Source: a virus (Duplodnaviria > Caudoviricetes). Taken from it: DNA of 64,000 nucleotides. Within the stretch, counting starts at the first letter, position 1; each line of letters starts with the position of its first letter. Under the pieces are notes generated by a model. The model was not told where the DNA came from. It made no database searches and saw only the letters and a list, made by a program, of their open reading frames with translations. The DNA is taken from positions 32,001 through 96,000 of IMG/VR virus record IMGVR_UViG_3300011678_000001; one strand, written 5' to 3'. Positions 21-27,778 of this stretch are shown piece after piece. A program made the translations under genes and the position numbers.

Positions 21-185
21 ATGAACGTACAAGAATTCCCCCTGACGCCGGAAGGCTACCAACAAGCCATGCAGTGGCTGCGTGATGAAGGCCTCGATCC
101 AATCGAGTACGCCAACCGCGAACTGTCCACCGATGGCTACACCATCGTCAACATGGTCAACCACCTGCGTCAGCGTAATGCATAA
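21..185 (+). CDS. small hypothetical protein (54 aa, MNVQEFPLTPEGYQQAMQWL...)
   Basis: Read by hand: ATG 21 to TAA 185, below the ORF-track cutoff, directly upstream of the radical SAM operon. Confidence 0.65.
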   Translation: MNVQEFPLTPEGYQQAMQWLRDEGLDPIEYANRELSTDGYTIVNMVNHLRQRNA

Positions 186-209: not shown

Positions 210-1298
210 ATCGACGTTATCCTGAAACCGACTGCGAGATGCAACTTCAAGTGTACGTTCTGCTCTAGCACGTACCTGAGCGATGATAATAAAGAAATCG
301 TCGAACTCACGCAGGTCGAACGGTTTATCCAGCGATTCCCTGAGACCCGGACGGTCATCGTAAACGGCGGCGATCCGTTGATGATGCCGCCTCAGTATTA
401 CTGGGATCTGATCGCCATCCTGGATCGATTAGAGTCAAAGGCCAGTATTTCGTTTACCACCAACCTCTGGCCCTTCTACAAGAAGCCTGAGCTGTGGGAA
501 GAGTTGTTCCGGCATCCTCGTGTCGGCGTGACCACCTCGTTCCAATACGGGGATGGGCGCTTGAAAGGCGATGGTACGCCATTGACCGAAGCTGAGTTCA
601 TCGCCATGAGCGATCTGTTCTTGGAACGCATCGGTTATCGGCCTGACTTCATTGCGGTGATTGACAAGGACAATGAACACACTGTGCTTGACACCGTACG
701 CCTTGCCCAGCGACTCGGGGTAGAGGCTAAAGTCAATTATGCTGTCGCCTCGGGCCCTGTGGTGGTCAACAAAGGCATCGCCATGGGGCATGCGGAAAGC
801 ATGTACACCCAAGCGGACATGTACAAAGCCTACATCGAGATTTACGATGCAGGGCTCATGCAGTGGGAGTTCAACACCAAGCAGATGGTCAAGCGCATCA
901 AGACGCAGAACACCATCTGCCCCTTGTCCCGTGAGTGTGACAGCGGGATTCGCAGCATCCAACCGGGTGGTGGGTATTTCTCCTGTGGCGCGTTCGGTGA
1001 TGACCTCAAATACCCCATCGACTTTGAAAAAGAGATGAATGGGGAGTTCTTCCAGCCGTTGAGCAATCAGGAAGAGTTGTGGTCGATGAAGGAGGCGTGC
1101 AATGAATGCCCGATGTTCCTCATCTGCAACGGGTGCCGCAAGACCATCACCGACACCAAACGGTTAGGCTTGGCTGAGCATCACTGCCAGACCATGAAGA
1201 GCATTGCCCCACGGCTCATCGAACTGAACGGGATGCAGGATTACCTGACCCCCACCCCTTACGTGGACGAATCGGTCCAGATCATCGCCCGAGGTTAA
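210..1298 (+). CDS. radical SAM protein with SPASM-like C-terminus (probable ATC start)
   Basis: The frame of the 378 ORF is open back to TAA 195-197 and encodes xDVILKPTARCNFKCTFC (CxxxCxxC) and NGGDP. C-terminal CNECPMFLICNGC. SD AAGGAG at 196-201. Confidence 0.85.
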   Translation: MDVILKPTARCNFKCTFCSSTYLSDDNKEIVELTQVERFIQRFPETRTVIVNGGDPLMMPPQYYWDLIAILDRLESKASISFTTNLWPFYKKPELWEELFRHPRVGVTTSFQYGDGRLKGDGTPLTEAEFIAMSDLFLERIGYRPDFIAVIDKDNEHTVLDTVRLAQRLGVEAKVNYAVASGPVVVNKGIAMGHAESMYTQADMYKAYIEIYDAGLMQWEFNTKQMVKRIKTQNTICPLSRECDSGIRSIQPGGGYFSCGAFGDDLKYPIDFEKEMNGEFFQPLSNQEELWSMKEACNECPMFLICNGCRKTITDTKRLGLAEHHCQTMKSIAPRLIELNGMQDYLTPTPYVDESVQIIARG

Positions 1299-1299
1299 C

Positions 1300-1494
1300 A
1301 TGGCTATTCTCACCCACGAAACCCTGCTGATCAATCTCAAACAAGCACTGGAGCGCGAGGCTGACACCATTGTCCGTCAACTGATGGCCCGTGGCCAAAG
1401 TATGACAACCATTGGGTTTGCAGACTTCGAGCTGGCCATGCGCGATGCGCTTATGGACCTTGCCAAGCAACACGCCAAGACCCATCGAGATTAA
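1300..1494 (+). CDS. small hypothetical protein
   Basis: 64 aa ORF tightly packed after the rSAM gene, GAGG upstream. Confidence 0.65.
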   Translation: MAILTHETLLINLKQALEREADTIVRQLMARGQSMTTIGFADFELAMRDALMDLAKQHAKTHRD

Positions 1495-1498
1495 CAAC

Positions 1499-1729
1499 AT
1501 GGCTTACATCGATCCTTTCGCTGAACCTGCCGACCCCGTCGTCGCCGAGTCAGCCCGTATCAACCGTGAACTCAAAGCCCTCTTTAACCGTGAGGCTGAG
1601 TACTTCGAACGACAACTGGCCAAGCGAAGCCTGATGCTCAATGATCGCGGCCTGGCTCAAACTGAGACCAATTTGCGGGAGTTCATCGATAAAGCCATCG
1701 CTGACATCGATCGCAGTCTTAAGGGGTAG
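1499..1729 (+). CDS. small hypothetical protein (MAYIDPFAEP...)
   Basis: Internal ATG of ORF 1412..1729 lies 4 nt after the previous stop; helical composition. Confidence 0.65.
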   Translation: MAYIDPFAEPADPVVAESARINRELKALFNREAEYFERQLAKRSLMLNDRGLAQTETNLREFIDKAIADIDRSLKG

Positions 1730-1733
1730 TGCT

Positions 1734-1808
1734 ATGTTGATGAACAACCTGGTGCTGGCGATCCGTGTGGCCATTCTTGAGGGGGCGTCATGTCGCGACC
1801 GCAAATAA
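1734..1808 (+). CDS. possible 24-aa peptide MLMNNLVLAIRVAILEGASCRDRK
   Basis: Fills the gap between genes, AAGGGG upstream, overlaps the next start. Confidence 0.3.
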   Translation: MLMNNLVLAIRVAILEGASCRDRK

Positions 1809-2794
1809 ACCTCAGCATCAATCCATCGTACTACTGCAACTTGCGGTGCGAGTTCTGTTATTTGACTCCTGAGCAATTGGGGGACCGGACGCGTCTGGAG
1901 TTGGACAAGTTCGAAGAGGTGTTGCTCGACGTCATGCAGCATTATGACATCGGTCATGTCGACATCTATGGGGGCGAAGTCCTGTTGTTGCCGCCCGAGT
2001 ACTTGCAAGGGATGAAAGACATCCTGCTCACGTACGGCATTGATGACATTGTTCTGGTGACCAACCTCACCCTGACCAATGAGATCACCGACGATCTGGA
2101 TTTCGAACTCTCGGTCTCCTACGACTTCGGAGCACGGGAGATGCATGAGCGGGTGTTCAACAACCTGCTGATGCTCCCGCGCCCGTACACCATCCTGACC
2201 TTGGCCAGTCGGAAGTTCTTGGACACCGTGAGTGTGGATGAATTCGTCCAGACCATGAACATGCTGAGCAATGCCAAGGACGTCGAGATCAAGCCGTACA
2301 GCTCCAATCAAGCCAATGCCCACCCAGTGTACTACGATGAGTTCGAACGCTTCGTATGGGCGGTTATAGAGCACCCTGAGCGCACGTTCTACTTCGAGAA
2401 TGAGCGGCAGGTAAAGGAAGCGGCTGAAGGGCTTCGAAATGCCTTCAGTGACGACCACCTGTACATCACCCCGACCGGTCAATTGGCCGTGTTGGAGTTC
2501 GATGCCAATGACAATGAGTTCTTCCTGCCCGTTGATGGGGTAGAAGGTTACCTTGCGTGGTGTGCAAAAGAAAAGCAGGCCGTGACCACCAATGGTCATT
2601 GCGGGACCTGCACCTACATGGGACATTGCCTTTCCGAGCACTTGCGGGAGGTCACCGACTTGTCCCGTTCCTGTAACGGTTTTAAGGGGTTACTCGACCT
2701 ATGGACAACCCACACCTCGTCCAACACCGACAGCGCTTGGAGATCACGCTTGATCTATTCCGAGGCTGCCAGCACCACTGCTCCGGATGCATGA
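1790..2794 (+). CDS. radical SAM protein
   Basis: YYCNLRCEFCY motif, YGGEV, TNLT, C-terminal CGTCTYMGHC...SCNG cluster. Confidence 0.9.
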   Translation: MSRPQINLSINPSYYCNLRCEFCYLTPEQLGDRTRLELDKFEEVLLDVMQHYDIGHVDIYGGEVLLLPPEYLQGMKDILLTYGIDDIVLVTNLTLTNEITDDLDFELSVSYDFGAREMHERVFNNLLMLPRPYTILTLASRKFLDTVSVDEFVQTMNMLSNAKDVEIKPYSSNQANAHPVYYDEFERFVWAVIEHPERTFYFENERQVKEAAEGLRNAFSDDHLYITPTGQLAVLEFDANDNEFFLPVDGVEGYLAWCAKEKQAVTTNGHCGTCTYMGHCLSEHLREVTDLSRSCNGFKGLLDLWTTHTSSNTDSAWRSRLIYSEAASTTAPDA

Positions 2795-3729
2795 TCGACC
2801 GCACCATGGGTGGGGACGTTAATGACCTGCCTGAGCTGCAAGCCCTCATTGAAGAAATGGTGGGCGTCGGGTACGTGGCGTTTGATTTGGGCATTGGCCC
2901 AACGGACTACATGAGTGCCGACAACAAAGATGAAGTCATGGAGCACCCGATCTTCCAGTCCATGGCGCAACTGTTTCATCAGGTGACCTTCAACGCGGCC
3001 TTCCTGGAGAAGGACCTGAAGAAGTACACCGCCATGTGTCAGGAGATTGATGTCTGTGTGCCGGGTAAACCGATTCGCTTCTTGATTCCGGCGGCCCCAC
3101 ACTTCTTCAAGACCAATAAGTTCAGTGATATGATCAACATGAAGCTGAACCACATCAAAGACAACCTGCACAACGCCTTCTTGAATGAAGCAGGCTTTGT
3201 GGTCAACTGCACCAAGGACACCGTCGATGACGAGTTCGAGGAGATGCTGATCAAAGGCTTTGATGTGGAGTTCCCGGTCGACAAGGATGACATCTTAAAC
3301 ATCCCGTACGGGCGCGCTCCAATCAAGGACTTGCAAGTGGCGCAACAGATCCAGCGCATGAGCTATCGGATCAGTTCGTACTACAAGCAGTTGAATGGGA
3401 CTGATGAACGGCGCAAGAACCCGGACCTGTGCCTGAACACCGGGACCATGATGAACCTGCTGTACACCGACGGCAAGCTGTACTGGGTGCCCTTCTTGAA
3501 AGACGACTGTCCGTTCCTAGAAGACGCCTTTACCGTGCCCAAGCCCTGGACTATGGATAACTTGCTAGCAACTCGTCAGCAGGCCTTGGACGCGTCTTTA
3601 GAGTACCTGAAAGACACGCCGTGCATGGAGTGCCCGTACGTCTCCAGTTGTTCGGAGAAGGGCATCACCAGCATCATGAAATTCATGGGCATCAAAGACT
3701 GCTTGGTAGGGCTTGAGTATGCACAGTGA
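2701..3729 (+). CDS. divergent radical-SAM-like Fe-S protein
   Basis: GCQHHCSGC (CxxxCxxC), GPTD where GGEP is expected, C-terminal CMECPYVSSC...DC. Confidence 0.75.
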   Translation: MDNPHLVQHRQRLEITLDLFRGCQHHCSGCMIDRTMGGDVNDLPELQALIEEMVGVGYVAFDLGIGPTDYMSADNKDEVMEHPIFQSMAQLFHQVTFNAAFLEKDLKKYTAMCQEIDVCVPGKPIRFLIPAAPHFFKTNKFSDMINMKLNHIKDNLHNAFLNEAGFVVNCTKDTVDDEFEEMLIKGFDVEFPVDKDDILNIPYGRAPIKDLQVAQQIQRMSYRISSYYKQLNGTDERRKNPDLCLNTGTMMNLLYTDGKLYWVPFLKDDCPFLEDAFTVPKPWTMDNLLATRQQALDASLEYLKDTPCMECPYVSSCSEKGITSIMKFMGIKDCLVGLEYAQ

Positions 3730-4759
3730 ACGTGTCTCACAAACCTTCAACTTAGGGTTGGAGGTGTTGAAAGGGTGTGGCTACAGTTGTTCAGGCTGCA
3801 CCGTGGATAAGAACTTTGCGGATTTTGAAGTCCCTGAAGAAGATGCCCGCGCCCTGCTAGCGCTACTCGAGGACCTCAAGCAGCAAGACTGGCGGATGTT
3901 GGAGCTGAAGATTGGCCCCACTGACATCACCAGTTCGGACAATGGCTTTGCGGTGTTGCAACACCCGGTGATCAAACAGATTGCCTCGTACTACAAAGTC
4001 TTGACCTTGAACGCTGCGATGCTGCATGACCGTAACCTGCCTGAACTCGCGGCGCTGTGCGATGAGCTGATGCCGGGCAAGTACGTCAACATCGGCACCC
4101 CTTTTACGTTGAAGAACGTGGCCAACGAAAAGTACATGGCGATGATGAAGGAGCGGCTGGCGTATTTCCAAAGCCTGCTGAAGAAAGCCTCCTTCACCCG
4201 TCTGTACGCCACAATCAACATCGAGGAGGAAAACCTCAAGCAGTTCAATGCCGAATCCTTCAGCCTGATCCGTAACTACGATTTCGGCTCCGGGATTGAC
4301 AAGGTCATTGAGTTCCCGTTTGTCAATGCCCGTCAAGGGTTTGATAACCTGCTCAACGCCGAGCGGTTTAAACGGGACATCAAGCAGTTTGCCGACTTCT
4401 CCAAGACGCGGGTCAACACGCATGAATTCATCCCGTTGATCCCAGGCGTCAAGGAAGGGTACGAGTACACCTACCGCACGGGTAAGCTCTATTCCACCAT
4501 CGTGTTGGTGGAGAACCTCACCCTGTACAAAGACAAGTACGAACTGGCCCGCCCTTGGACGGGTGCACGGTTGCTCGAGCACCGTGAAAATGCGTACATC
4601 AACAACCTGATCAAGTACAGCGAACACCCAGAATGTGGGGACTGCTGTTTCTTGGACCACTGTGCCCGGTGTGATGTGCAGCATCTGATGGAGGAGACCG
4701 GGTCTGACCGGTGCCTGATCGAGATGAAGAACCGCTGGGACCTCATGGGAGAACACTGA
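3719..4759 (+). CDS. divergent radical-SAM-like Fe-S protein (paralog of the previous gene)
   Basis: GCGYSCSGC, GPTD, C-terminal CGDCCFLDHCARC...RC. Confidence 0.75.
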   Translation: MHSERVSQTFNLGLEVLKGCGYSCSGCTVDKNFADFEVPEEDARALLALLEDLKQQDWRMLELKIGPTDITSSDNGFAVLQHPVIKQIASYYKVLTLNAAMLHDRNLPELAALCDELMPGKYVNIGTPFTLKNVANEKYMAMMKERLAYFQSLLKKASFTRLYATINIEEENLKQFNAESFSLIRNYDFGSGIDKVIEFPFVNARQGFDNLLNAERFKRDIKQFADFSKTRVNTHEFIPLIPGVKEGYEYTYRTGKLYSTIVLVENLTLYKDKYELARPWTGARLLEHRENAYINNLIKYSEHPECGDCCFLDHCARCDVQHLMEETGSDRCLIEMKNRWDLMGEH

Positions 4760-5190
4760 TGGATCACCTGCCGTATAAACCCTTCCAACGCCTTTATGAC
4801 GAATTGGTGCAAGAGCACAGCGATGCTTTTGAACTGATGGAGTTCGTGGAGGACGAGGAGTTGGTGGATAACGCCTTGAAGTATTTCGAGTCGGCTACCT
4901 TCCCGTTGATCTACCCGGCCAAGAGTTACGCCGTGGCGATCATCTACGCCTTCAAGCTCAAGGAACTCTACGGTCTGGACATCTACACAGTGCTGGACGA
5001 TGCCGACCTGTTCTTGGGTCAGGATGAGTACTTCGTTCCGTACAGTCAAGACCCGGCCACCTATGACGCCATCATCGAGAAACTCGAGAAGGTGGATAAC
5101 TGGTTGGAGAAGGGCTGGGCACCGAAGTCTGTGCAGTACTGCCTGCTCGAGTGCACGGAAGCCGGTATCACGTCATTGACGGAGGTGTGA
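4759..5190 (+). CDS. acidic hypothetical protein of the rSAM operon
   Basis: TGATG stop/start overlap at 4757-4761; LIYPAKSYAVAIIYA segment. Confidence 0.75.
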   Translation: MDHLPYKPFQRLYDELVQEHSDAFELMEFVEDEELVDNALKYFESATFPLIYPAKSYAVAIIYAFKLKELYGLDIYTVLDDADLFLGQDEYFVPYSQDPATYDAIIEKLEKVDNWLEKGWAPKSVQYCLLECTEAGITSLTEV

Positions 5191-5191
5191 G

Positions 5192-5749
5192 ATGGAAACC
5201 ATCAGTCTATGGGCTACCCCATTGGCAAAGATCAACGTGGCCGATCAGTTCGATATGGCTGCCTACGCCGATGAAGTCTTCACCCTGTTCAGCATGACCA
5301 ACGGAGAAGACGACCGTCAGCGTTGCATCGATGAAGAATTGTTTCCAATCATCCTCACCATGCGTGATGAGGTGATCACCCCAGCGGTGCAAGCGTACTG
5401 CCAAGAACACTTTGGCGAAGCCATGTTTCCCTTCTACGTGGAAACCAATGGTAAATGGATCGAAAATGGGGAAGGTCTGTACCCACATCTGCATCCAGGC
5501 AGTATCGTTTCAGCGATCTGCTATCCGGGCGATTCCACCAACGCCTTGACCATGTTTGATCCCAGGATGAATGCGATGCGTGGCTACCCCAAGCGCATGC
5601 GTAACCATCACTTCCCCAACTTCAAGATCAGTCCGAAGCAAGGGGATGTGTGGATCTTCCCCAGCTATGTGCAACACAGCGTCAGCCATGTGACTGAAGA
5701 CATGCGCCTGTCCTTGCTGCACGAATACTACCAAACCAAGGACCTGTAA
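5192..5749 (+). CDS. putative 2OG-Fe(II) oxygenase (TIGR02466/PF13759-like)
   Basis: PHLHPGS..SAICY, FDPR, PKQGDVWIFPSYVQHSV, R-x-S motif (RLS). Confidence 0.8.
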   Translation: METISLWATPLAKINVADQFDMAAYADEVFTLFSMTNGEDDRQRCIDEELFPIILTMRDEVITPAVQAYCQEHFGEAMFPFYVETNGKWIENGEGLYPHLHPGSIVSAICYPGDSTNALTMFDPRMNAMRGYPKRMRNHHFPNFKISPKQGDVWIFPSYVQHSVSHVTEDMRLSLLHEYYQTKDL

Positions 5750-5750
5750 C

Positions 5751-6308
5751 ATGGAACTGATTCGCCCCTGGGTGACCACGATTGGAAAGTTCAATGTCAG
5801 CGATCAATGCGACCTTGATGAGATCTGTGGGGCCTTGTTAGCCAGCAGCTGCAAGGTCAATGGAAGCTTCCCACCAATGGATGACAGTGATCCGGCTGTC
5901 CAACCGTTGGTGCGACTGCGTGACGATGTGATTACTCCTGTGGTTATTGAGTACATCGCCACTCAATTTGGGATGCGCCTTGAACGCACGGAGTTGGACA
6001 TTCTGACACAATGCGTGGTGATCCCGCCTGGAGGCGATCTAGAGACGCACATCCATGCAATGAGCAGTGTGACCGTGGTCATGTACCCCGTGGAGTCAGC
6101 TGCTCGAATGATCGTCCTTGATCCTCGCACCACGGCGTGTCGAGGGTATCCACGTGACATCGTGACCTCGCACTTTGGTAACCTGCGTATTGAACCGGCA
6201 CCGGGCGATGTGTACATCCTGCCCAGCTATTTACAGCATTCGGTCAATACCGTTGGGGATGAACTGCGATTATCCTTTGTCAACGACTACTTCATTGCCT
6301 CTGAATAA
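5751..6308 (+). CDS. putative 2OG-Fe(II) oxygenase, paralog
   Basis: THIH, LDPR, PAPGDVYILPSYLQHSV, RLS. Confidence 0.8.
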   Translation: MELIRPWVTTIGKFNVSDQCDLDEICGALLASSCKVNGSFPPMDDSDPAVQPLVRLRDDVITPVVIEYIATQFGMRLERTELDILTQCVVIPPGGDLETHIHAMSSVTVVMYPVESAARMIVLDPRTTACRGYPRDIVTSHFGNLRIEPAPGDVYILPSYLQHSVNTVGDELRLSFVNDYFIASE

Positions 6309-6320
6309 CGGAACCTTTCC

Positions 6321-6977
6321 ATGTCTGAAGAATTCGAACTCTATACCGGCGCTGACCGCGGCCAATTCCGGGTGATGCGCCTGCTGGACAATGCTGGTGT
6401 TCAATTACGTGCCACTGCCCGTATCAAAGATGCGGTGGTGTTCAATTTCCTCTCTGCATTGCAGTACGCCATCATCGGCTACGGCCTGGAATGGTGGAAA
6501 GACGGCGACCCTGCGCCTCAGGACGGGGGTGAGCCTCATCCGTACATCCCTAAGGGTCGTCCTAACGTCAACAAGCTGTACTTCCGAGGCAAGACCAGTC
6601 TGACGCCCAAGATGCTGCACTTGGAAGACGCCATCATCAACGACTTCCTGAACAACAAAGCGTTGGCAGATCCTATGACCCTGTTGTCGTACACACAGGA
6701 GTCTGCGGAGCAAGTGGCCAGTGCGGCTGAGTGGCGCCCTCTCATGAACAGTGCGTACTCCATCGCCAATGCCGTTCACATCACCCGACTGTCGACCACC
6801 CCGTCAACGCCGTTGACCATTGACAGCGAAGGGCTGCGCTTTGAGTACCGTCGTAACACGGACGAGAACCAGGTCTTCACGGGGATGCTAAAGGACTACA
6901 AATTCGAGAAACTCCGAGACTGCTATCCGGCAATGCTCGATCTGATTGAGAGTGAACAAAATGGCAGCAACAGTTAA
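6321..6977 (+). CDS. hypothetical protein
   Basis: 218 aa ORF co-oriented in the operon with phage-like codon usage. Confidence 0.7.
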   Translation: MSEEFELYTGADRGQFRVMRLLDNAGVQLRATARIKDAVVFNFLSALQYAIIGYGLEWWKDGDPAPQDGGEPHPYIPKGRPNVNKLYFRGKTSLTPKMLHLEDAIINDFLNNKALADPMTLLSYTQESAEQVASAAEWRPLMNSAYSIANAVHITRLSTTPSTPLTIDSEGLRFEYRRNTDENQVFTGMLKDYKFEKLRDCYPAMLDLIESEQNGSNS

Positions 6978-7680
6978 TCAGTTAAAAGCCCTGCAGCGTG
7001 GCATGAAAGCCATGGGGCTGTACACCGGTGCCATCGATGGTGCTTGGGGTCCTCTGAGTCACGGGTCGTTCATGAACGCCCGCCGTATGACCGAAGCTGT
7101 GCGTAAGAAAGCGGTGGCCGAACATGGCCTTGATCCGATCTTCTTAGCCTACTGCAACGCCACAGCATGGTCGGAAAAGGTCAGTGATGAGTTCGTCAAG
7201 ATCGTCAAGCACATTGCTGAAAGCTTGGCCATGCCCAATAACGGCCCGGACGACCTGATGGCCTGCATGGCGTTTGAGACAGGTGAAACCTTCTCTCCGA
7301 CCATCCGCAATGGCGCCGGTGCTCCGTACTTTGGTCTGATCCAGTTCGGTGCAGCCGCTGCCAAAGACATCGGTACCACCACCGGTGCGCTGATCAAGCT
7401 GACTGCTGAAGAGCAGCTCTTCTACGTGCAGAAGTTCTTCGCGCCGTACAAAGGCAAGTTGAAGAACCTGGGTGACGTCTATCTCAGAATACTCTGGCCC
7501 GCCGGTGTGGGTAAACCAGACGACTACGTTCTGTGGGACGAGAAGACCCGACCAACGACCTACGTGCAGAACAAGGGTCTGGACATCAACAAGGATGGGA
7601 AGATCACCAAAGCTGAGTGCTGCGCCAAGATCACCCAGAAGTTGGTTGCAGGTCTTCATCCGAAGAACCTCAAGGTCTGA
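6961..7680 (+). CDS. modular endolysin: peptidoglycan-binding domain plus lytic transglycosylase/lysozyme-like domain
   Basis: N-terminal LQ..MK.MGLYTGAIDGAWGP (PG_binding_1-like); LMACMAFETG...GLIQF catalytic motif. Confidence 0.85.
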   Translation: MAATVNQLKALQRGMKAMGLYTGAIDGAWGPLSHGSFMNARRMTEAVRKKAVAEHGLDPIFLAYCNATAWSEKVSDEFVKIVKHIAESLAMPNNGPDDLMACMAFETGETFSPTIRNGAGAPYFGLIQFGAAAAKDIGTTTGALIKLTAEEQLFYVQKFFAPYKGKLKNLGDVYLRILWPAGVGKPDDYVLWDEKTRPTTYVQNKGLDINKDGKITKAECCAKITQKLVAGLHPKNLKV

Positions 7681-7738
7681 ACAAAGAAAAAAGAAAGCAG
7701 CAGACAGGAGGAGGGCTATAGCCCTCCTCCCTATGCCG
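7681..7738. terminator. bidirectional terminator
   Basis: GGAGGAGGGC-TATA-GCCCTCCTCC (7707-7730), followed by TATGCCG on + and TTTCTTTTTTCTTT on -. Confidence 0.75.
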
Positions 7739-7876
7739 TTAGTCTTTTTGCTTGCGCACGAAGGTCCGACCGAAGACCGTGAAACGATCCGGCAGGCCCT
7801 TAACTAGCTTGTAGCCAATAACCGAACCTGCAACAGCAGCGCCCACAGCGATAGCAGCGAATGTAGTATTGGTCAT
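7739..7876 (-). CDS. 45-aa single-TM peptide MTNTTFAAIAVGAAVAGSVIGYKLVKG...
   Basis: Read by hand; hydrophobic N-terminus, basic tail. Confidence 0.6.
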   Translation of the reverse strand: MTNTTFAAIAVGAAVAGSVIGYKLVKGLPDRFTVFGRTFVRKQKD

Positions 7877-7902
7877 GAGGGTAGTCCTATTGTAGGGTGG
7901 TC

Positions 7903-8067
7903 TTAGTTTGCCAGTGCGGCTTCAAGGGTGGCGATCTTAGCTTCGTAGGCCAGGGCCTGAGTGCTGAGGACACCATAAACACGCATGGCATGGGCGAACA
8001 TATGGGTGGCATGAGCCAATTCCGCCTGAAGGGCGCGAGTGTCAGTGCCGAACAATTTGCTGAACAT
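7903..8067 (-). CDS. 54-aa hypothetical protein MFSKLFGTDTRALQAELAH...
   Basis: Read by hand; SD GGAGG upstream. Confidence 0.6.
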   Translation of the reverse strand: MFSKLFGTDTRALQAELAHATHMFAHAMRVYGVLSTQALAYEAKIATLEAALAN

Positions 8068-8096
8068 GATGCGCCCTCCATTGGGCTAGGGTTGAG

Positions 8097-8609
8097 TTAA
8101 CTGCGTTTCTTGCCAGCACCTAATGCCAGCAGACCCAGGCCCAGAATCAGGGCGCCGAGTCCGGTGTCGCTTTCTTGTTTGACTTCTTTACGGTGACCAC
8201 TGATGCCATGGGCTTGAGCACCCTTCCAACGGGACTCGTGACGCACAGGTTCTTCGATCTCCAGTTCCAAGGTACGAGTCGGTTCACTGCGAACCGGTTC
8301 ACGTTCCATGACCACCAGCTCCTTGTTGACGAAGAAGCATTTCAACCGCAGGTGCAGCGCCGCCGCCAGTGCCAGACGACGATGGTCCTTAGGCAGCTCT
8401 TTCCACTCGGTGCTCATCCAGACGCGCTCACGGTCGCCATCGCAACGAACCACTTCCAGCTCGAAGCGTTCGCCATGGATCTTGAACTCCACTTCATTGT
8501 GGTAGTCCTGCCAACGGACGATGACGCCACGGGTGGTCTTGGTGTGGATTTTAGCGGCGCTTGCCAGGGCGTCGTGAATGGATTTAACTTGGACTTCGAT
8601 AACTTTCAT
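8097..8609 (-). CDS. hypothetical early protein with C-terminal membrane anchor
   Basis: SD AGGAGG; C-terminal GLGALILGLGLLALGAGKKRS. Confidence 0.75.
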   Translation of the reverse strand: MKVIEVQVKSIHDALASAAKIHTKTTRGVIVRWQDYHNEVEFKIHGERFELEVVRCDGDRERVWMSTEWKELPKDHRRLALAAALHLRLKCFFVNKELVVMEREPVRSEPTRTLELEIEEPVRHESRWKGAQAHGISGHRKEVKQESDTGLGALILGLGLLALGAGKKRS

Positions 8610-21835: not shown

Positions 21836-22846
21836 ATGTACGTACGCCCCCTGCGATATAACAAGCCTACAAACCAGCAACTGCTGGACATCTTCAACTT
21901 CACCAACAAGTCTGCCGTCGAACCTTGGCAGGTGACGTTTGGTGCGCCGTATCCCGTTGCGGATAATGGCATGCAGATCACCGCTGCCCATGTCAACGAC
22001 TACAACCAACAGCGTCCCACTCAGGGTACGTTGACCCGGATCGAAGTCATCCCGACGCCTGAGTCAGGGTGGACCAAGACCTTGCAACTGACGTATCGCC
22101 GTCAGGTGATCCAGGATCACTTCGTCAGTGTGCCTTTTGTAATCTACGCGACCGAGAACACGCCGGAGGTTATTTTAAAAGGACTTCACGAACAATATGG
22201 TCTTTATCTCGACCAAGAACTTGTGGACATCACGTTCCAACAAGTCGACTTGGCCGACGTGCTGTTCCATACCCACATGGGCAGTATCCTGGAAACAGAT
22301 TTCTGCAGCGATTACGTTCCTCCGGCTTCGTACAACGCCCTCGTCAAAATCAAGCCCAACCATCCGATCTGGACAGGTGAGCTGAATGTCTACATCCGTG
22401 AAGCGGTCAAGTTCTTGGACCGCAGTGTGAAGACGACGTTGGAAGTACACCGTTACTTGGGTCCTGGCGATCACAACAAGATGCCAGCCGAAATGATTCT
22501 GCCCAACAACCGGTTCGTGGATTACGACTATTACATGAAAGGCTTGAAGGTCGGTGACCTGCTCGAGTCCTGGATTGTTGATACCGCCCGCGAAGTCACT
22601 GGGGACAACTGGGTCTTCACCCAGAATGCCAATCCGTTCAACCTGTACGCATCGCGTGTCGTCTATAATGGTTTGAACACCGGCGAAGTCTACATCAACG
22701 ACCCGAAGGTTAGTAATGTTTTGATCATTCAGTTCTCTGATGAGCATTGCACCAACATTCGGGGTCAGTGGGTGATCGGCTATTACAACCGGGACACATG
22801 GCAGCGCCGCGAACGGATTGACTACTTGCCCATTCAGGACCAGTAA
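21836..22846 (+). CDS. virion structural protein
   Basis: LTYRR, HPIWTGEL, FNLY.SRVVYNGLN motifs; SD GAGG. Confidence 0.7.
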   Translation: MYVRPLRYNKPTNQQLLDIFNFTNKSAVEPWQVTFGAPYPVADNGMQITAAHVNDYNQQRPTQGTLTRIEVIPTPESGWTKTLQLTYRRQVIQDHFVSVPFVIYATENTPEVILKGLHEQYGLYLDQELVDITFQQVDLADVLFHTHMGSILETDFCSDYVPPASYNALVKIKPNHPIWTGELNVYIREAVKFLDRSVKTTLEVHRYLGPGDHNKMPAEMILPNNRFVDYDYYMKGLKVGDLLESWIVDTAREVTGDNWVFTQNANPFNLYASRVVYNGLNTGEVYINDPKVSNVLIIQFSDEHCTNIRGQWVIGYYNRDTWQRRERIDYLPIQDQ

Positions 22847-22892
22847 CCAATCGTATGTACTGTTTTCTTTCTGACCGATAAAGGCCAACCAA

Positions 22893-23765
22893 ATGCAAAA
22901 GATTGTTCCGACGCAGCTGTCGAACTTCCTCCAGGTCGCTAACTTCCTGGGCACCGGATTTGAACAGCACCCCAACACCACACTGAACCAGAAGTTTGAC
23001 ATTCAGGCCAGTGCGGTGGTCCAGCCAAACATGAAGCCTGCGCTGAAGTTCTACACCATCGGTTACGGTGGTCATGGATACACCATGGGCGCGAACAACA
23101 TCCCACTGTCCTCGGTGATCGATCACAGTTCAGGGGATGCGGGTCTGTACGAGCACCTGCCCTTTGTCATTCGTCCGATCAATGACGACCTGACAGCCGG
23201 TGAGCGGTCCAAGTACTGCCTGCGTAAGACCATCTCCGTCGATGGCGTGAACTACTACGCCTACTACGGTAAGCGTCTGGACATGACCGGTGTTAAGCCA
23301 CGCATGACCAAGCGCAGCATCGTTGACGGCCAGACCGTGATCGAGGAATACGTCTACACTGAGAAGAACCTCAGCCCGACGCCTCCAGAAGTGCCGAACA
23401 CAGGCGCTGTCACCACCAGTAACGCCTACCTCGCCACGAGCGCCATCGTCCCGATGCCGTTCACCGAGAAAGACGTCGCTGAGCTGTACAACGTCGCCGA
23501 GATCCTCTTCGGTGATCGCCGCATGGCCATCATCAGTGAGTTCGGTTTCTGCACCGCTGTCGATGCTGACGTGTCGATCAACACCACGTCTGGCGCAGTG
23601 AACTTCAAAGAAGTCATCGGCGCTCAGATTGCTGCCATCATCAGCGGTCACTACGAGCTGATCTTCAACAGCAAAGGCTTTGACTTCAGCCTTGAAGTCG
23701 GCGCTTCCCAGCCGCTGCTGGGTACCAATCAAATCCCGACCGTAACGGTGGCGATGACTAAGTGA
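22893..23765 (+). CDS. conserved phiKZ-like virion structural protein
   Basis: NTTLNQKF, IGYGGH, HLPFVIRP..DDL...ER..Y.LR, YYAYYGKR motifs; TATG at 22854. Confidence 0.75.
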   Translation: MQKIVPTQLSNFLQVANFLGTGFEQHPNTTLNQKFDIQASAVVQPNMKPALKFYTIGYGGHGYTMGANNIPLSSVIDHSSGDAGLYEHLPFVIRPINDDLTAGERSKYCLRKTISVDGVNYYAYYGKRLDMTGVKPRMTKRSIVDGQTVIEEYVYTEKNLSPTPPEVPNTGAVTTSNAYLATSAIVPMPFTEKDVAELYNVAEILFGDRRMAIISEFGFCTAVDADVSINTTSGAVNFKEVIGAQIAAIISGHYELIFNSKGFDFSLEVGASQPLLGTNQIPTVTVAMTK

Positions 23766-23789
23766 AACTTATCCGCCTAAGGTGACTTT

Positions 23790-24380
23790 ATGAACTTCTC
23801 AGATGAATCATTCATCTACCGCATCATGGCGATTGACAATGGGTCCTCGTCATTGGGGATGGTGATCGCCGACTTGGACCTTAGGCAGGATACCTACCAC
23901 ATTCAGTACGCCAACACATTCCTTGCTGAAAAGCTCATCGATGATCGGGCCGGTCAATTGATCAGTCATGGTCCGCGTTGGGCAAGGCAGAATACCCTGC
24001 GTGATCACATCGCGCAGGAGTTGCGGTTTCACAACCCGCATGCCGTTGCTGTCGAGACCCCGTTTTTCATGCCGAGGAGGGTGCAAAGCTTCGAGACCCT
24101 GACAGAGATGATGATCTTCATCCGCCAAGCGGTGGAAGAATACAATCCCATCGCTGACATCTACCGGGTGACCCCTGGCGAAGCTAAGCGCGCAGTGCAA
24201 CCCTCGAAAGACTTCAGCATGAAAAAGGCCGTAATCAAAGATTGCGTCCTGAAATTGGAAAATATAACGTATAAAGATGGAATCCGTAAAGACGCCCTGT
24301 CGGAGCATGAGTACGATGCGATCGCTGTAGCCAGGGCTCATGGCCAAGCGATTCGTAAGGCAACCGGCTTCGCGAGGTGA
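23790..24380 (+). CDS. ruvC: RuvC-like Holliday junction resolvase
   Basis: IMAIDNGSSSLG, VAVETPF, P.EAK.AV, HEYDAIAVA acidic active-site motifs. Confidence 0.8.
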   Translation: MNFSDESFIYRIMAIDNGSSSLGMVIADLDLRQDTYHIQYANTFLAEKLIDDRAGQLISHGPRWARQNTLRDHIAQELRFHNPHAVAVETPFFMPRRVQSFETLTEMMIFIRQAVEEYNPIADIYRVTPGEAKRAVQPSKDFSMKKAVIKDCVLKLENITYKDGIRKDALSEHEYDAIAVARAHGQAIRKATGFAR

Positions 24381-24402
24381 CAGCCTGCGAGGAAAAAGCG
24401 TC

Positions 24403-24867
24403 ATGCTAATGTCTGACGTGATAAAGGTGCTGGGGACTGAACCCTTGAATGAGTTCCCGTGGGGAGTGTGGGTAAAAGACACAGTGAACCTGTTTGTCGA
24501 TGAGAACGCAAGACTTATGGACGAGTCTACTGGGGAAGACGTTCTCGCCTCCCTGAACACGCTGCCTGAAGAACAGCGTGAGCTTATCCTGCGTGCGCAG
24601 CTCGATCCTGCCCATCATTGTGTCGTCTCGCCGGTCGGCGGTGGCATGGTGCTTGAGATCGATGAGCAGCCACTGGAACCAGCCGCTGAAGTTAAGGCTC
24701 TGGTCACCGCCATGCAGACACCACAGTTCTTGGTGTCATCGACCATGGTCGGACTGGTGGTCTTGGCATCGCTCTGGATGGTATCGACTTTGTCGGTGCA
24801 TGATGACGTCCATATCCTGGAAGCTATCGTGGCATTCGTTAAGGTCTTCGGCTTGGCTATTCCGTAG
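24403..24867 (+). CDS. membrane protein
   Basis: C-terminal hydrophobic segments; AGGA upstream. Confidence 0.65.
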   Translation: MLMSDVIKVLGTEPLNEFPWGVWVKDTVNLFVDENARLMDESTGEDVLASLNTLPEEQRELILRAQLDPAHHCVVSPVGGGMVLEIDEQPLEPAAEVKALVTAMQTPQFLVSSTMVGLVVLASLWMVSTLSVHDDVHILEAIVAFVKVFGLAIP

Positions 24868-24876
24868 AGGTGCGCA

Positions 24877-25080
24877 ATGGAACAGGAAATGCTTGACACA
24901 ACGCCAAAGAAAAAGTGGGGCATCAAAGCGTATCTGATGTTGATGACTCTGGCAGTCATGTCCACAACGTTTGTGGTGGAGATGGTAGCGGCTGTGAAAG
25001 AGGGCAGAGGCATGAATATGGAGCTCGTCAACAAGCTCCTAGACACGCTTCTGACGCTACTTACTGCGACACCGGTGTAA
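24877..25080 (+). CDS. small membrane protein
   Basis: SD GAGGT; KKKW followed by a TM helix. Confidence 0.65.
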   Translation: MEQEMLDTTPKKKWGIKAYLMLMTLAVMSTTFVVEMVAAVKEGRGMNMELVNKLLDTLLTLLTATPV

Positions 25081-25086
25081 TGCCAT

Positions 25087-25137
25087 ACATAGACCCCCTA
25101 CAACGCCGTCACAAGCGTTGTAGGGGGTCTATGCTGG
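25087..25137. terminator. bidirectional hairpin flanked by CATA/TATG
   Basis: CATAGACCCCCTACAACGC / GCGTTGTAGGGGGTCTATG perfect inverted repeat between convergent genes. Confidence 0.75.
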
Positions 25138-25140
25138 ATG

Positions 25141-25764
25141 TTAGTCTTTCTTGCTGTACTCGGGGTTCGGTTGTTCGTATTTAGTACTGAACAGGGTCCG
25201 AACAAACTCCAAGTCTTCCGGGGATTTCTTGCCCGGCTTGATCACTCGTACGTTGTCCAACTTGAAGGGAATGACCACCTGACTGATGTCCACGCCTTCG
25301 GGCACTTCCAGGTCGATCTTCACGTCATGGATGACCTGATGGTCGAGGGTTTGGAACACGTCAACTTCCAAGGTCAACTTGCTGTTAGGCACCGGGAAGA
25401 AGTAGCGGTTCTTGATCAGACCGAACTGGACCAGGCGCTTGAAGATCTTGAAGGTGTCTTCCGAGACTTTCATCTCGTTCTCTTCATTGCCGTCAGCCGC
25501 TTTGATCTTGATGGTCTGGGTGAAGGTGTCAGGGCCTTCATCGTCAGGCTTGGTGTGCCGAACCCGAATGCTACCGGTGTTGGTTGGCAAGCCCCATTGG
25601 GATTGGAACTCACGACGCTCAGCCCCGTCCAGAACAGAAAGGTCCGAGATGGTGCCGTAGATTTCATACTCACGTTCAAGCTCAGTGCTGCCATCGGCTA
25701 CAAGGCTTTCCAGCGAAACAAGGGCGTCTGTTTGAAAGGCGCTCAACAGAATGTGTTTGGTCAT
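25141..25764 (-). CDS. CYTH-like (triphosphate tunnel) domain protein
   Basis: ELEREY (ExExK-like), IRVR, TIK, EENE, IKNRYFF, EVDVF. Confidence 0.7.
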   Translation of the reverse strand: MTKHILLSAFQTDALVSLESLVADGSTELEREYEIYGTISDLSVLDGAERREFQSQWGLPTNTGSIRVRHTKPDDEGPDTFTQTIKIKAADGNEENEMKVSEDTFKIFKRLVQFGLIKNRYFFPVPNSKLTLEVDVFQTLDHQVIHDVKIDLEVPEGVDISQVVIPFKLDNVRVIKPGKKSPEDLEFVRTLFSTKYEQPNPEYSKKD

Positions 25765-25849
25765 GGTGCATAGCCCAAAGAAAAGAAAAAAGGAACTGTG
25801 TCATAATAGATGGGAGCCCGAAGGCCCCCACCCACTATGACCGGAGTCC

Positions 25850-27778
25850 TTACGCCATCCGAATGCCTACGATGTTGCGAGCACCGCTGATCGGTACCAG
25901 CTCAAAGCAGACATTGTCAGCCGTAACCATGTAGACGTGGCCAGCACCTGCAGTCTTGCGACCAATGGCGTACAAGCCAGTCAGGACGTCAGCCATTTCT
26001 GGATCGGCCCCTTCGCCTTGACGCTGAGGAGTGCGCACATCGCTGGTGACCAGACCGAACTTGTCAGAGTCGATCTTGACGTGCAGCGTTGCCATCGGAC
26101 GGAACAGGACGACAACGTTTTCACGGAACTGCTTGTACGCTTCGGGATCTTCCTCGGCGATCGGCAGGATGTCACTGCATTCCAGGAACTCAGCCCGCTC
26201 TTCGCTGTCGGTGATGTAATGCAAGCCCAGCAGCAGCACCTTGGTCCGGCTGAGGAACTGGGTCACATACGCCTGACCGAACGTCTTGAATGACTTGCAG
26301 TTGAGCAGGTCGGCAAAGTCTTCGATGAAGCTGTCGATGGACAGGCCGGTTTGACCGAACTGATCACGCAGTACCGAGTTGACTTCCTTGGTGTAATGCT
26401 TGTCCAGGAAGGTCAGGACGTTTTCAGCCATGGTGCCACGCAGCGACTGGAGACGCTTCTGAAGCATCTGCAGGTCCGCATCACCTGCACCAAGCGACTT
26501 GATAGATTCCAAGCCTTTGATGGTTTCAGGATCAGCTGCCAGTTGTACCGAATCGATGGCATTGATGGAGGTAACATCACTTTCAGTCTTGGTCGCAGTA
26601 CCGGCAACGCGCAGCGCCGCTTCTTCCAGACCCGAGATCGCCAGTGCAGACTGATGAATCGTTGGGTTGGACAGGTCAAGCTCAGACAGCAACTCCTTAC
26701 GAGCAGAGACGATGGTGTTGTTCAGGGCGTCCAGATCCACGGCGTCGATGTCGTCGCCTTCAAAGATCGGGTCGTTGTCCTGACGTTCCAGGGTAGTACG
26801 GGGACGGTTAGGGCGAACCTGCTTGCGGATCTCGTGCGCAGTTTCGACCAGGTCATCTGTCATAGCAATGAACTCCTCTCTGATGGTGCCGTCTTTGCCC
26901 TTGACCAGGAAGCACACCTCTTGGTCGATGTCATAGGCACGGCGGGTTTGTTGTTTGGGGCTCCATTTCCACTGCCAGTTGGACTTGTGAGCCAGCTGCC
27001 AGTGTTCACCTTCGACCCAGAAGTCATCGTAAGGGCGTTCCTTGCTCATGTCCGGACCATCCTGTGGTGGCAATGCTTCTTCGACTGGAGCTTCAGGAGC
27101 GGGACGCGAGAGCGGCGACTCTTGCATCGGAGCGGCGTAGCTGCCACGTGCCGTCTGACCGAACCCAGAGCTGCGCGGTGCAGCCGCAGTCGGACGGTCA
27201 AAGAACGACGATGAAGCAGCAGCGGCTGGGGCACCCGGACGCCCACCGAATGGACTGTTGGTTGCCCGCGTCTGCTGAGGCTCTTCCCGGTCAAACACAT
27301 TCCGACGCCCACCGAACACACCGGTGTCACGGCTGCCGAATACGTTACGACCACCACCTGCACCACCGCCAAAGCCTACACGCCCACCGCTCAGACCCGC
27401 TGGGCGACGTGCGCCACCCCGGACGCGGTTAAGCATCTCTTCCCACTTGGCCGCTGCACGGCCCAGGGCCGAATACATGTCGTCTGGCACTGCATCCGCG
27501 ATGCGACGGTCAGACATGGCAAAGGCGCCGACGTTGGCATCCACCGCCGCAATGATGATGTCACGGATCACCGCTTCCGCTTCACTGTCACTGCGGGTGT
27601 TGGGCAGTTCATTCTCAACGAACGCCATGATCACATCCACCAGCGAGGCCATGTCGTTGTTGTTGTACTGCCCCTGAGACATGTAGCGGTCGTACTCGTC
27701 GCGGACAGGGTTGTCTTTGACGCGGTTCTGCATGTAGTCGATGGTACGGTCGTATACGTAAGTGCCGATTTCGCTCAT
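25850..27778 (-). CDS. conserved phiKZ-like hypothetical protein with FG/RG-rich low-complexity linker
   Basis: 642 aa, directly downstream of the RNAP subunit; SD GGAG. Confidence 0.8.
   Translation of the reverse strand: MSEIGTYVYDRTIDYMQNRVKDNPVRDEYDRYMSQGQYNNNDMASLVDVIMAFVENELPNTRSDSEAEAVIRDIIIAAVDANVGAFAMSDRRIADAVPDDMYSALGRAAAKWEEMLNRVRGGARRPAGLSGGRVGFGGGAGGGRNVFGSRDTGVFGGRRNVFDREEPQQTRATNSPFGGRPGAPAAAASSSFFDRPTAAAPRSSGFGQTARGSYAAPMQESPLSRPAPEAPVEEALPPQDGPDMSKERPYDDFWVEGEHWQLAHKSNWQWKWSPKQQTRRAYDIDQEVCFLVKGKDGTIREEFIAMTDDLVETAHEIRKQVRPNRPRTTLERQDNDPIFEGDDIDAVDLDALNNTIVSARKELLSELDLSNPTIHQSALAISGLEEAALRVAGTATKTESDVTSINAIDSVQLAADPETIKGLESIKSLGAGDADLQMLQKRLQSLRGTMAENVLTFLDKHYTKEVNSVLRDQFGQTGLSIDSFIEDFADLLNCKSFKTFGQAYVTQFLSRTKVLLLGLHYITDSEERAEFLECSDILPIAEEDPEAYKQFRENVVVLFRPMATLHVKIDSDKFGLVTSDVRTPQRQGEGADPEMADVLTGLYAIGRKTAGAGHVYMVTADNVCFELVPISGARNIVGIRMA

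Follow-up and report, generated by a model that had tools for sequence, protein, structure and literature searches.

A conserved jumbo phage cassette of radical SAM proteins and oxygenases and its likely substrate, the Cys-His tail of a virion protein

An operon at the start of the window is part of a larger cassette

We analyzed a 64,000-nucleotide stretch of a virus genome (referred to here as the window; bases 32001 to 96000 of the 269,790-bp record IMGVR_UViG_3300011678_000001). It opens on a group of genes for radical S-adenosylmethionine (rSAM) proteins and oxygenases that probably serve to mature a protein of the phage particle. At the DNA level, Pseudomonas phage pPa_SNUABM_DT01 (DT01), a 265.5-kb phiKZ-related jumbo phage, is the sole cultured relative; part of the region is 72% identical between the two, and the gene order is the same. 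Positions 210 to 6977 of the window form a tightly coupled + strand operon with intergenic gaps of −94 to +60 nt. Its genes encode, in order, rSAM-C (w1, 210..1298), rSAM-D (w2, 1790..2794), rSAM-E (w3, 2701..3729), rSAM-F (w4, 3713..4759), an acidic protein of 143 residues (w5, 4759..5190), two paralogous 2-oxoglutarate (2OG)-Fe(II) oxygenases (w6, 5192..5749, and w7, 5751..6308), and a function-unassigned protein of 218 residues (w8, 6321..6977). The four consecutive rSAM proteins carry CX3CX2C at residues 12 to 30 and CX2CX5C near the C terminus. An initial annotation, made from the window sequence alone, had described this same set of proteins on the + strand, and each of them was confirmed.

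That annotation had also treated 210 to 6977 as the full span of the operon. The tight coupling stands, but the start of the operon lies outside the window: eight further + strand genes lie upstream with equally tight spacing, and the window operon makes up the 3′ two-thirds of a longer cassette, which begins about 5 kb upstream of the window, with its upstream part at 26.8 to 31.9 kb of the record. All on the + strand, the upstream genes encode two tail-fiber-like proteins (u1 and u2, record 22820-26860), a JmjC_2/cupin-4 oxygenase (u3), rSAM-A, a protein of 183 residues with a Cys-His tail (the tail protein), the function-unassigned proteins u6 and u7, and rSAM-B, the last gene before the window. 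The whole cassette thus holds six rSAM proteins and three oxygenases. With 9 to 13 genes, it takes up about 4% of the 270-kb genome.

The tail protein has an invariant Cys-His ending

The tail protein gene lies directly after that for rSAM-A (record 28449-29000, window −3551 to −3000). Its product ends in ...V-I-C-H-T-S-C-H-S-N-C-H-C-A-R-G-R-R, a tail of about 16 residues with the pattern (Cys-His-x-Ser/Asn)x3-Arg-Gly-Arg-Arg. The initial annotation had seen no obvious Cys/His/Ser-rich substrate in the window, had suggested that one might lie upstream of position 1, and had proposed inspecting the upstream contig for a protein with a C-terminal Cys/His/Ser repeat; the tail protein is such a candidate. 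There is a single copy of the motif in the 270-kb genome. The tail orthologs of DT01, RSF1, and Atu_ph07 have the same ending although they are only 33 to 45% identical overall. In 34 homologs (32 to 73% identity), nine tail residues, namely, three Cys, three His, and three Arg, do not vary. A profile search of 1.84 billion proteins returned 690 cluster representatives of the family, and the ending CHxxCHxxCHxx-RxRR is present in 202 of the 218 members examined. Each unit has Ser or Asn as its fourth residue, or Ala in the case of the last unit.

Some members depart from this plan. Tails with two units (P0158 and P0194) end in RSRR, and in tails with four units (P0176, P0177, P0227, and P0228), a Gly-rich extension, G-D-G-P-G, replaces RGRR. 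Six loci (L074, L078, L080, L086, L104, and L107) carry two tandem genes with the Cys-His tail ending.

An AlphaFold2 (AF2) model of the tail protein predicts a confident fold for residues 1 to 168 and a disordered tail. As modeled, the folded domain resembles no solved structure. Foldseek found nothing in the Protein Data Bank (PDB) at E ≤ 0.001, and alignment of 48,161 chains with VIA gave a best Z score of only 4.8. A BFVD search returned only uncharacterized orthologs and three longer proteins of one uncultured myovirus.

The tail protein and the enzymes occur together in distant phages

Of 50,697 phage records, 15 contain rSAM-A, and exactly these 15 contain rSAM-C; they comprise DT01, the RSF1/RSL2/FLC group of Ralstonia and Burkholderia phages, and the Rak2-like phages Atu_ph07 and Phosso. 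At least 253 IMG/VR contigs encode a relative of rSAM-C, and from these contigs we tallied 80 loci. Upstream genes were counted in the 66 loci with at least 7 kb of upstream sequence and downstream genes in the 66 loci with at least 6 kb of downstream sequence. Upstream, the tail open reading frame (ORF) is present in 63/66 loci, rSAM-A and rSAM-B in 65/66 each, and the cupin and u6 in 61/66 each. Downstream, the counts are 65/66 for rSAM-D, 62/66 for the acidic protein, 58/66 for a PF13759 oxygenase (w6 or w7), 35/66 for rSAM-E or rSAM-F, and 14/66 for w8. On the basis of this tally, the core of the cassette consists of the cupin, rSAM-A, the tail protein, u6, rSAM-B, rSAM-C, rSAM-D, the acidic protein, and one oxygenase, while rSAM-E, rSAM-F, u7, and w8 are accessory or clade specific.

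The best-conserved gene of the cassette is that for rSAM-C, whose product is 53 to 72% identical in DT01, RSF1, and Atu_ph07. Across loci, the tail motif starts a median of 564 nt after rSAM-A ends, and the tail gene also follows rSAM-A in DT01, RSF1, Atu_ph07, and two metagenome contigs, where the tail proteins are about 33% identical. Because the carriers (phiKZ-related DT01 and RSF1/RSL2; Rak2-like Atu_ph07) are very different phages, we conclude that the cassette moves as a module. The search for homologs and synteny that the initial annotation had proposed as a check therefore came out in its favor, with the genes co-occurring in distant jumbo phages both among the 15 records and at the IMG/VR loci.

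The tail ortholog of Atu_ph07 is a virion protein

Direct information on the location of the tail protein is available for Atu_ph07. In purified virions of this phage, 8 unique peptides covered 35% of its tail ortholog, gp170 (296 residues, 31.9 kDa), while the cupin, the rSAM proteins, and the u6 ortholog of this phage (gp164-169, 171, and 172) are not in the virion list (PMC6102473, Table S5). The presence of gp170 and the absence of the enzymes indicate that the tail protein is structural and that the enzymes are not. The gel samples were heated at 95°C in sodium dodecyl sulfate (SDS) (PMC6102473). gp170 was found in bands 1 to 9 and peaked in band 1, which otherwise holds proteins of 87 to 137 kDa; other proteins of about 30 kDa peaked in bands 7 and 8 (PMC6102473, Table S5). 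We read this pattern as an SDS-stable, high-mass form of the tail protein, which a covalent link and a very stable oligomer would both explain.

The rSAM proteins resemble leaderless SPASM enzymes

All six rSAM proteins (four in the window and two upstream) open with the cluster motif CX3CX2C, located at residues 12 to 36, which leaves no space for an N-terminal leader-recognition domain. Against the Pfam Radical_SAM model (PF04055; gathering cutoff of 29.5 bits), rSAM-C and rSAM-D score above the cutoff (45.4 and 33.7 bits), and rSAM-A and rSAM-B fall just under it (29.1 and 29.2 bits). For rSAM-E and rSAM-F, Pfam and NCBIfam gave no sequence-based match. The SAM-binding motif is GGEP in rSAM-A, GGEL in rSAM-B, GGDP in rSAM-C, and GGEV in rSAM-D. 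In rSAM-E and rSAM-F, it is replaced by an invariant G-P-T-D (P69-T70-D71 in rSAM-F), and the residue preceding the third cluster Cys is Gly rather than an aromatic residue.

The C-terminal regions were searched for the SPASM/twitch Cys pattern CX9-15GX4C ... CX2CX5CX3C ... C. At least seven SPASM-type Cys are present in rSAM-A, rSAM-B, and rSAM-C (with the spacing CX2CX5CX2C in rSAM-C), five in rSAM-D, and six in rSAM-E and rSAM-F. Judged by these counts, the SPASM-like set of rSAM-C is complete and those of rSAM-D, rSAM-E, and rSAM-F are reduced. rSAM-A has the full SPASM set and is the only one above the cutoff of TIGR04085 (28.6 bits versus 27, with rSAM-B at 17.7 bits); PF13186 has no match among the window proteins. 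rSAM-C, with CNFKCTFC at residues 12 to 19, has C-terminal Cys at positions C238/C244/C260/C298/C301/C307/C310/C327 (C298xxC301x5C307), and its residues 251 to 332 align to the SPASM domain of the anaerobic sulfatase-maturating enzyme (anSME) with an E value of 9e-4. rSAM-D (CNLRCEFC) has the twitch-like reduced cluster motif C258/C271/C274/C280/C295 (C271xxC274x5C280).

rSAM-E (CQHHCSGC; C308xxC311x5C317...C334) and rSAM-F (CGYSCSGC; C308xxC311x5C317) are paralogs that are 24% identical over their full length (E value of 2e-32). An alignment of 25 homologs shows C22, C26, C29, C308, C311, C317, and C334 (rSAM-F numbering) to be invariant and shared by rSAM-E. In the AF2 model of rSAM-F (pLDDT of 88.7), a hairpin and a helical end that bears Cys come after a (beta/alpha)6 core, and the model aligns to anSME (4k38) over 300 residues with a VIA Z score of 15.0, that is, over the full length including the SPASM domain. 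Z scores of 10 to 14 were obtained with ChlB, SuiB, TigE, CteB, SkfB, PqqE, viperin, and MoaA, and Foldseek gave a probability of 1.0 for SkfB, CteB, ChlB, EpeE, SuiB, and anSME. The predicted structure thus has the rSAM/SPASM fold, and its full-length matches anSME, ChlB, SuiB, TigE, CteB, SkfB, and PqqE are rSAM/SPASM or twitch enzymes that modify peptides or proteins. Together, the Pfam scores of rSAM-C and rSAM-D, the modeled fold of rSAM-F, and its invariant Cys show that the CX3CX2C pattern of the four window proteins is not due to chance.

Two aspects of gene calling concern these proteins. The rSAM-C gene lacks an ATG, GTG, or TTG start; its start codon is ATC at position 210, 8 nt after AAGGAG, which is exactly the start coordinate that the initial annotation had given. 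Among its relatives, the start codon is ATC in L013, ATA in L033, and ATG, GTG, or TTG in eleven others. The nonstandard starts of L013 and L033 follow a strong Shine-Dalgarno sequence with the same 8-nt spacer ending in TATAAA. Judging from the nucleotide sequence, this looks like genuine AUH initiation, which would perhaps hold down the amount of enzyme. Matches of 1.3 to 1.6 kb in close relatives suggested insertions in rSAM-C, but they had been joined with a weak second match in the adjoining rSAM-D, and there is no insertion. The rSAM-D and rSAM-E genes overlap by 94 nt (2701-2794), and the last ~28 residues of rSAM-D extend beyond the end of the alignment with its orthologs; the true stop of rSAM-D or start of rSAM-E may differ from the call.

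The oxygenases and the acidic protein

The cupin u3 scores 39.5 bits against PF08007 (cutoff of 22) and contains H-T-D plus a distal H-P-H, which fits an HxD...H metal motif. Ribosomal oxygenases of the JmjC_2 family hydroxylate protein His or Arg. Such an activity would suit the tail, whose His and Arg are invariant. Both window oxygenases exceed the PF13759 cutoff of 27 bits (48.6 for w6 and 32.9 for w7), both are under that of TIGR02466 (33.6 and 21.7 bits versus 62.5), and they are 36% identical to each other. The acidic protein, with 29 Asp and Glu versus 10 Lys and Arg and an isoelectric point of 4.12, matches phrog_20737 (E value of 2e-41) and has thirteen invariant residues across 35 sequences. 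Searches of Pfam, NCBIfam, PADLOC, and the PDB found no relative of this protein, and a protein atlas search gave no usable lead; a PDB profile match to designed PPR repeats was spurious, covering 20 residues. It is possible that the acidic protein is a partner that holds the basic tail.

A probable cassette for protein maturation

Together, these results make it probable that this conserved jumbo phage cassette matures a protein and that its substrate is the Cys-His tail of the 183-residue virion protein. The initial annotation had proposed a dedicated system of post-translational modification that acts either on a peptide that is ribosomally synthesized and then modified post-translationally (RiPP) or on a virion protein. 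The tail protein, its co-occurrence with the enzymes, and the virion ortholog all support such a system, in which the modification itself is what we infer, and of the two kinds of target the virion protein fits better. A RiPP pathway was rejected, as the candidate substrate is a virion protein with a folded domain of 165 residues and a tail, the enzymes have no leader-recognition domain, and scans of the cassette proteins with Pfam, NCBIfam, and PHROG models turned up no peptidase family. The lack of a leader-recognition domain and of a cassette peptidase argues for protein maturation of the kind carried out by anSME, QhpD, and the HXS system.

We propose that the rSAM/SPASM enzymes, leaderless and anSME-like, would engage the free tail in the infected cell before assembly and abstract hydrogen atoms from it. 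One or more of three changes would result: thioether links from the three tail Cys, three-residue cyclophanes that join His to a C-beta at the H-x-S/N units, or formylglycine, made from Cys or Ser by an anSME-like oxidation. Hydroxyl groups on His, Arg, or other residues would come from the JmjC and PF13759 oxygenases. The finished protein would then enter the virion near the tail fibers or baseplate, where a rigid cross-linked tail, possibly metal binding or covalently attached, could serve adsorption or particle stability. The tail is likely the substrate of the enzymes; the roles given here to the individual enzymes and to the tail in the particle are proposals in the same sense.

Of the known rSAM systems, anSME matches rSAM-F best in structure and ranks first for rSAM-A among the NCBIfam models. 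It shares with the cassette enzymes a length of about 350 residues, the N-terminal CX3CX2C, the lack of a leader-recognition domain, and a SPASM domain, and it acts on protein Cys or Ser. The sulfatase maturation motif is C-x-P-S-R, and the last unit of the tail, as C-H-x-S-R, would likewise place Ser at +3 and Arg at +4. However, the tail lacks Pro or Ala at +2, the substrate has no sulfatase fold, the cassette contains no sulfatase gene, and it has multiple paralogous enzymes as well as oxygenases. Membership in the anSME family (TIGR03942) is excluded by scores of 47 bits for rSAM-A and 34 bits for rSAM-C versus a cutoff of 349. QhpD is an rSAM/SPASM enzyme that forms several Cys thioether cross-links in the small gamma-subunit of quinohemoprotein amine dehydrogenase, and this subunit is retained in a larger assembly. 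Its model (TIGR03906) matches rSAM-A with an E value of 2e-6 and 26.7 bits versus a cutoff of 453; the Asp/Glu acceptors and the quinone cofactor of that system are absent here, and the setting is a virion.

rSAM-A also matches the cyclophane formers YhhB, FxsB, and AmcB (E values of 5e-12 to 8e-12), which, like GrrM/OscB, belong to triceptide RiPP pathways, and the three H-x-S/N units of the tail are of the aromatic-x-x type that triceptide enzymes cross-link. The His-specific rSAM enzymes HtkB and HaaB make links from His-C2 to a C-beta on H-x-x motifs (PMC11499958). In contrast to triceptides, the substrate proposed here belongs to the virion, is folded, lacks a leader and an accompanying protease, and carries a conserved Cys before every His. 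The triceptide synthase models NF041707, TIGR04269, NF041718, and TIGR04261 scored 45.6, 45.1, 44.8, and 24.5 bits versus cutoffs of 445, 370, 425, and 310, so that membership was rejected, and no score came near the cutoff for the darobactin, dynobactin, or sactipeptide families. NirJ and AhbD models matched only the N-terminal cluster regions, far under their cutoffs.

The nearest concept is the HXS antiphage system, in which several rSAM genes lie beside the gene for a His-x-Ser protein of about 200 residues and that for a small accessory protein. There, HxsB and HxsC mature HxsA, which has five HxS repeats; the mass change was mapped to one repeat, and maturation is essential (PMC13128918). 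Membership in HXS is excluded by scores an order of magnitude under the cutoffs: HxsB gave 27.1 bits versus 370 with rSAM-A, HxsC gave 27.2 bits with rSAM-C and 19.3 bits with rSAM-B versus 267.9, and HxsA and HxsD gave no match at E values up to 1 (TIGR03976-03979). The cassette differs from HXS in that its repeats are C-H-x-S/N, lie at the extreme C terminus, and end in RGRR; in that it has up to six rSAM proteins together with a JmjC cupin and PF13759 oxygenases; and in that it is phage encoded and its product is a virion protein, not a periplasmic effector.

Alternative explanations and points against maturation of the tail

We consider it unlikely that the enzymes act on virion proteins other than the tail protein, such as the two fiber-like ones encoded just upstream or several structural proteins, and that the tail protein is a metal or Fe-S helper (scaffold, electron carrier, or metallochaperone) or a metal-stabilized part of a fiber. 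It is true that the cassette sits within a tail/baseplate module, that u1 and u2 match virion and tail-fiber PHROGs, and that a fiber-like protein with the shared Trp-rich C terminus precedes the cassette of the distant contig L010. Three Cys-His pairs would also make good metal ligands, and four to six enzymes seem too many for a tail of 16 residues. However, what travels unchanged with the enzymes is the tail and no fiber sequence, and the tail is terminal and disordered, as accessible substrates are. The location of the tail protein in virions that do not contain the enzymes fits a catalytic helper poorly.

Two further explanations are less likely still. The more improbable of them is that the cassette is the phage counterpart of HXS defense: once matured, the H-x-S tail would work in the periplasm as DNA enters, shielding the DNA or neutralizing an HxsA-like barrier, with no structural role. 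This idea, which we regard as remote, draws on the size of HxsA (about 200 residues), its HxS repeats, its two maturing rSAM enzymes, and its action on DNA entry, as well as on the three H-x-S/N units and basic RGRR end of the tail and its delivery with the particle. It is opposed by the HxsB and HxsC scores of 27 bits and the lack of HxsA and HxsD matches given above, by PADLOC, which matches nothing but weak viperin N termini, and by the Cys before each His and the oxygenases, which have no HXS counterpart. Scarcely more credible is a nucleic acid or small-molecule pathway (a DNA or tRNA base, a cofactor, or a product like the antiviral nucleotides), with the structural neighbors of the cassette being incidental. 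Base modification by rSAM and 2OG enzymes is known from other phages, and dihydrofolate reductase genes lie inside RSF1-type cassettes, but such genes are absent from the other lineages. There is a weak N-terminal likeness to models of MoaA (36.9 bits versus 284), QueE (18.5 versus 260), NrdG (20.7 versus 131), and viperin (20 to 29 versus 180), yet these matches cover only the N-terminal cluster region and are far under the cutoffs, while the full-length likeness is to peptide- and protein-modifying SPASM enzymes. Pfam and NCBIfam scans found no partner genes for queuosine, deazaguanine, or thymidine hypermodification in the cassette. The initial annotation had likewise seen no match to queuosine, 7-deazaguanine, or NrdG pathways, and the model scores agree with it.

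Several observations weigh against maturation of the tail by the cassette enzymes. No modification has been seen in any family member, and the unusual gel position of gp170 may reflect an SDS-stable oligomer and not covalent links. By analogy to the His sites at the T4 fiber tip, the (C-H-x-x)3 stripe could bind metal without any chemistry. Lineages differ in having 4 to 6 rSAM genes, yet the tail is constant, which disfavors a scheme of one enzyme per residue; across the tallied loci, no link between the presence of rSAM-E or rSAM-F and the tail sequence was seen by eye. rSAM-E and rSAM-F may not cleave SAM, since their sequences have no GGE motif and no aromatic residue at the phi position of CX3CX-phi-C. 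Oxygen-sensitive rSAM enzymes and oxygen-requiring oxygenases would need to be separated in time or to tolerate oxygen. Finally, no enzyme reaches the cutoff of any curated family, so that model scores do not assign a reaction type.

rSAM/SPASM maturation has so far been described for secreted peptides and for a few enzymes (sulfatases and amine dehydrogenase), with one antiphage effector added in 2026; our literature search found no report of such maturation for a protein of a virus particle. In the papers on DT01, FLC6, RP12/RP31, and Atu_ph07, the genes are labeled “radical SAM” or “Fe-S oxidoreductase” with no role, and the six rSAM proteins and three oxygenases of DT01 were noted but not explained. 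We tentatively suggest, with slightly less than even confidence, that the tail protein is the first viral structural protein matured by rSAM enzymes, in which four to six rSAM/SPASM proteins and two to three Fe/2OG oxygenases would make the tail of this fiber- or baseplate-associated protein polycyclic, and possibly metal binding or covalently anchored, by a Cys-His chemistry outside the described classes of cross-link; the resulting structure would be needed for adsorption or particle stability in hundreds of jumbo phage lineages. If the tail is modified, this would add a new class of Cys-His cross-link or oxidation, reveal a new principle by which virions are assembled or hosts are recognized, and form a direct parallel to the bacterial HXS defense system. 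For enzymology, the cassette provides six rSAM enzymes, all leaderless, together with a candidate substrate that is short and defined.

Flanking genes, small ORFs, and cassette variants

u1 and u2, whose PHROG virion and tail-fiber matches have E values of 1e-127 down to 1e-130, contain N-P-H-x-V-T-K-A-Q-V-G-L-G repeats and a Trp-rich C-terminal motif, G-A/S-W-x-Q-V/I-W-P-x-x-W. The same motif ends the large fiber-like protein (5306-8329) ahead of the cassette in L010. For u6, Pfam, NCBIfam, and PADLOC gave no match, and neither a PDB profile search nor the protein atlas gave anything. Three small + strand ORFs lie among the window genes. The acidic w0 (54 residues, 21..185), taken from the ORF list, lies between rSAM-B and rSAM-C, has no family match in Pfam, NCBIfam, and PHROG-type library scans, and has tblastn matches only in L013, L014, L017, L024, L026, and L033, which form its near clade; it is not part of the core. 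The coding status of w1b (64 residues, 1300..1494) and w1c (76 residues, 1499..1729) is uncertain; they match no family in Pfam, NCBIfam, or PHROGs and have tblastn matches only in the nearest relatives (L014-L016). A promoter and terminator scan of the cassette yielded fewer sites than shuffled sequence did and was therefore uninformative.

At the 3′ end, w8 has no match in Pfam, NCBIfam, or PHROGs and, among the cultured phages compared, an ortholog in DT01 only, and it is probably outside the conserved cassette. The operon had initially been described as ending at an endolysin. A lysin-domain protein (w9, 6946..7680, + strand) does mark the 3′ boundary and lies outside the cassette, but the name endolysin is uncertain: w9 matches phrog_4928 and phrog_196 (baseplate hub, C-terminal lysin part), and its DT01 ortholog is annotated as a putative transglycosylase. 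It adjoins the cassette in only 21 of 66 loci.

Some loci carry variants of the cassette. In L009 (13338-16227), rSAM-E/F are replaced by a 603-residue rSAM protein with CPYQCSFC at residue 207 and two PF13640 oxygenases of the prolyl-hydroxylase type. RSF1-type phages (L007, 15500-16789) have an HNH endonuclease and two dihydrofolate reductase genes between rSAM-B and rSAM-C. The phiKZ-related Ralstonia phages RP12 and RP31 have a related block that includes two YomR-like fiber proteins, ORFs of 125 and 295 residues, a 537-residue rSAM protein, an “arylsulfatase regulator” rSAM protein, a MoaA-like rSAM protein, and an MgoB-like protein (PMC5468394).

Species-representative genomes in GTDB contain 23 close relatives of rSAM-C, mostly in metagenome-assembled genomes (MAGs) labeled Bdellovibrionota/Bacteriovoracaceae; other labels (L093-L115) are Pseudobdellovibrio, Rickettsiales, Marinovum, and even Methanobacteriota. 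A search for Gp23-type capsid proteins in five cassette-bearing MAGs found no match and was uninformative, as the control gave none either. The MAG contigs with the cassette are 110 to 300 kb long with 30 to 47% GC, and most of those with enough flanking sequence keep both the cassette and the tail motif. The one locus that was inspected, L097, has flanks of the phage type, with a PHROG methyltransferase (E value of 2e-188) and a tail-fiber C-terminal domain. The cassette-bearing MAG contigs are probably jumbo phages that were binned into MAGs.

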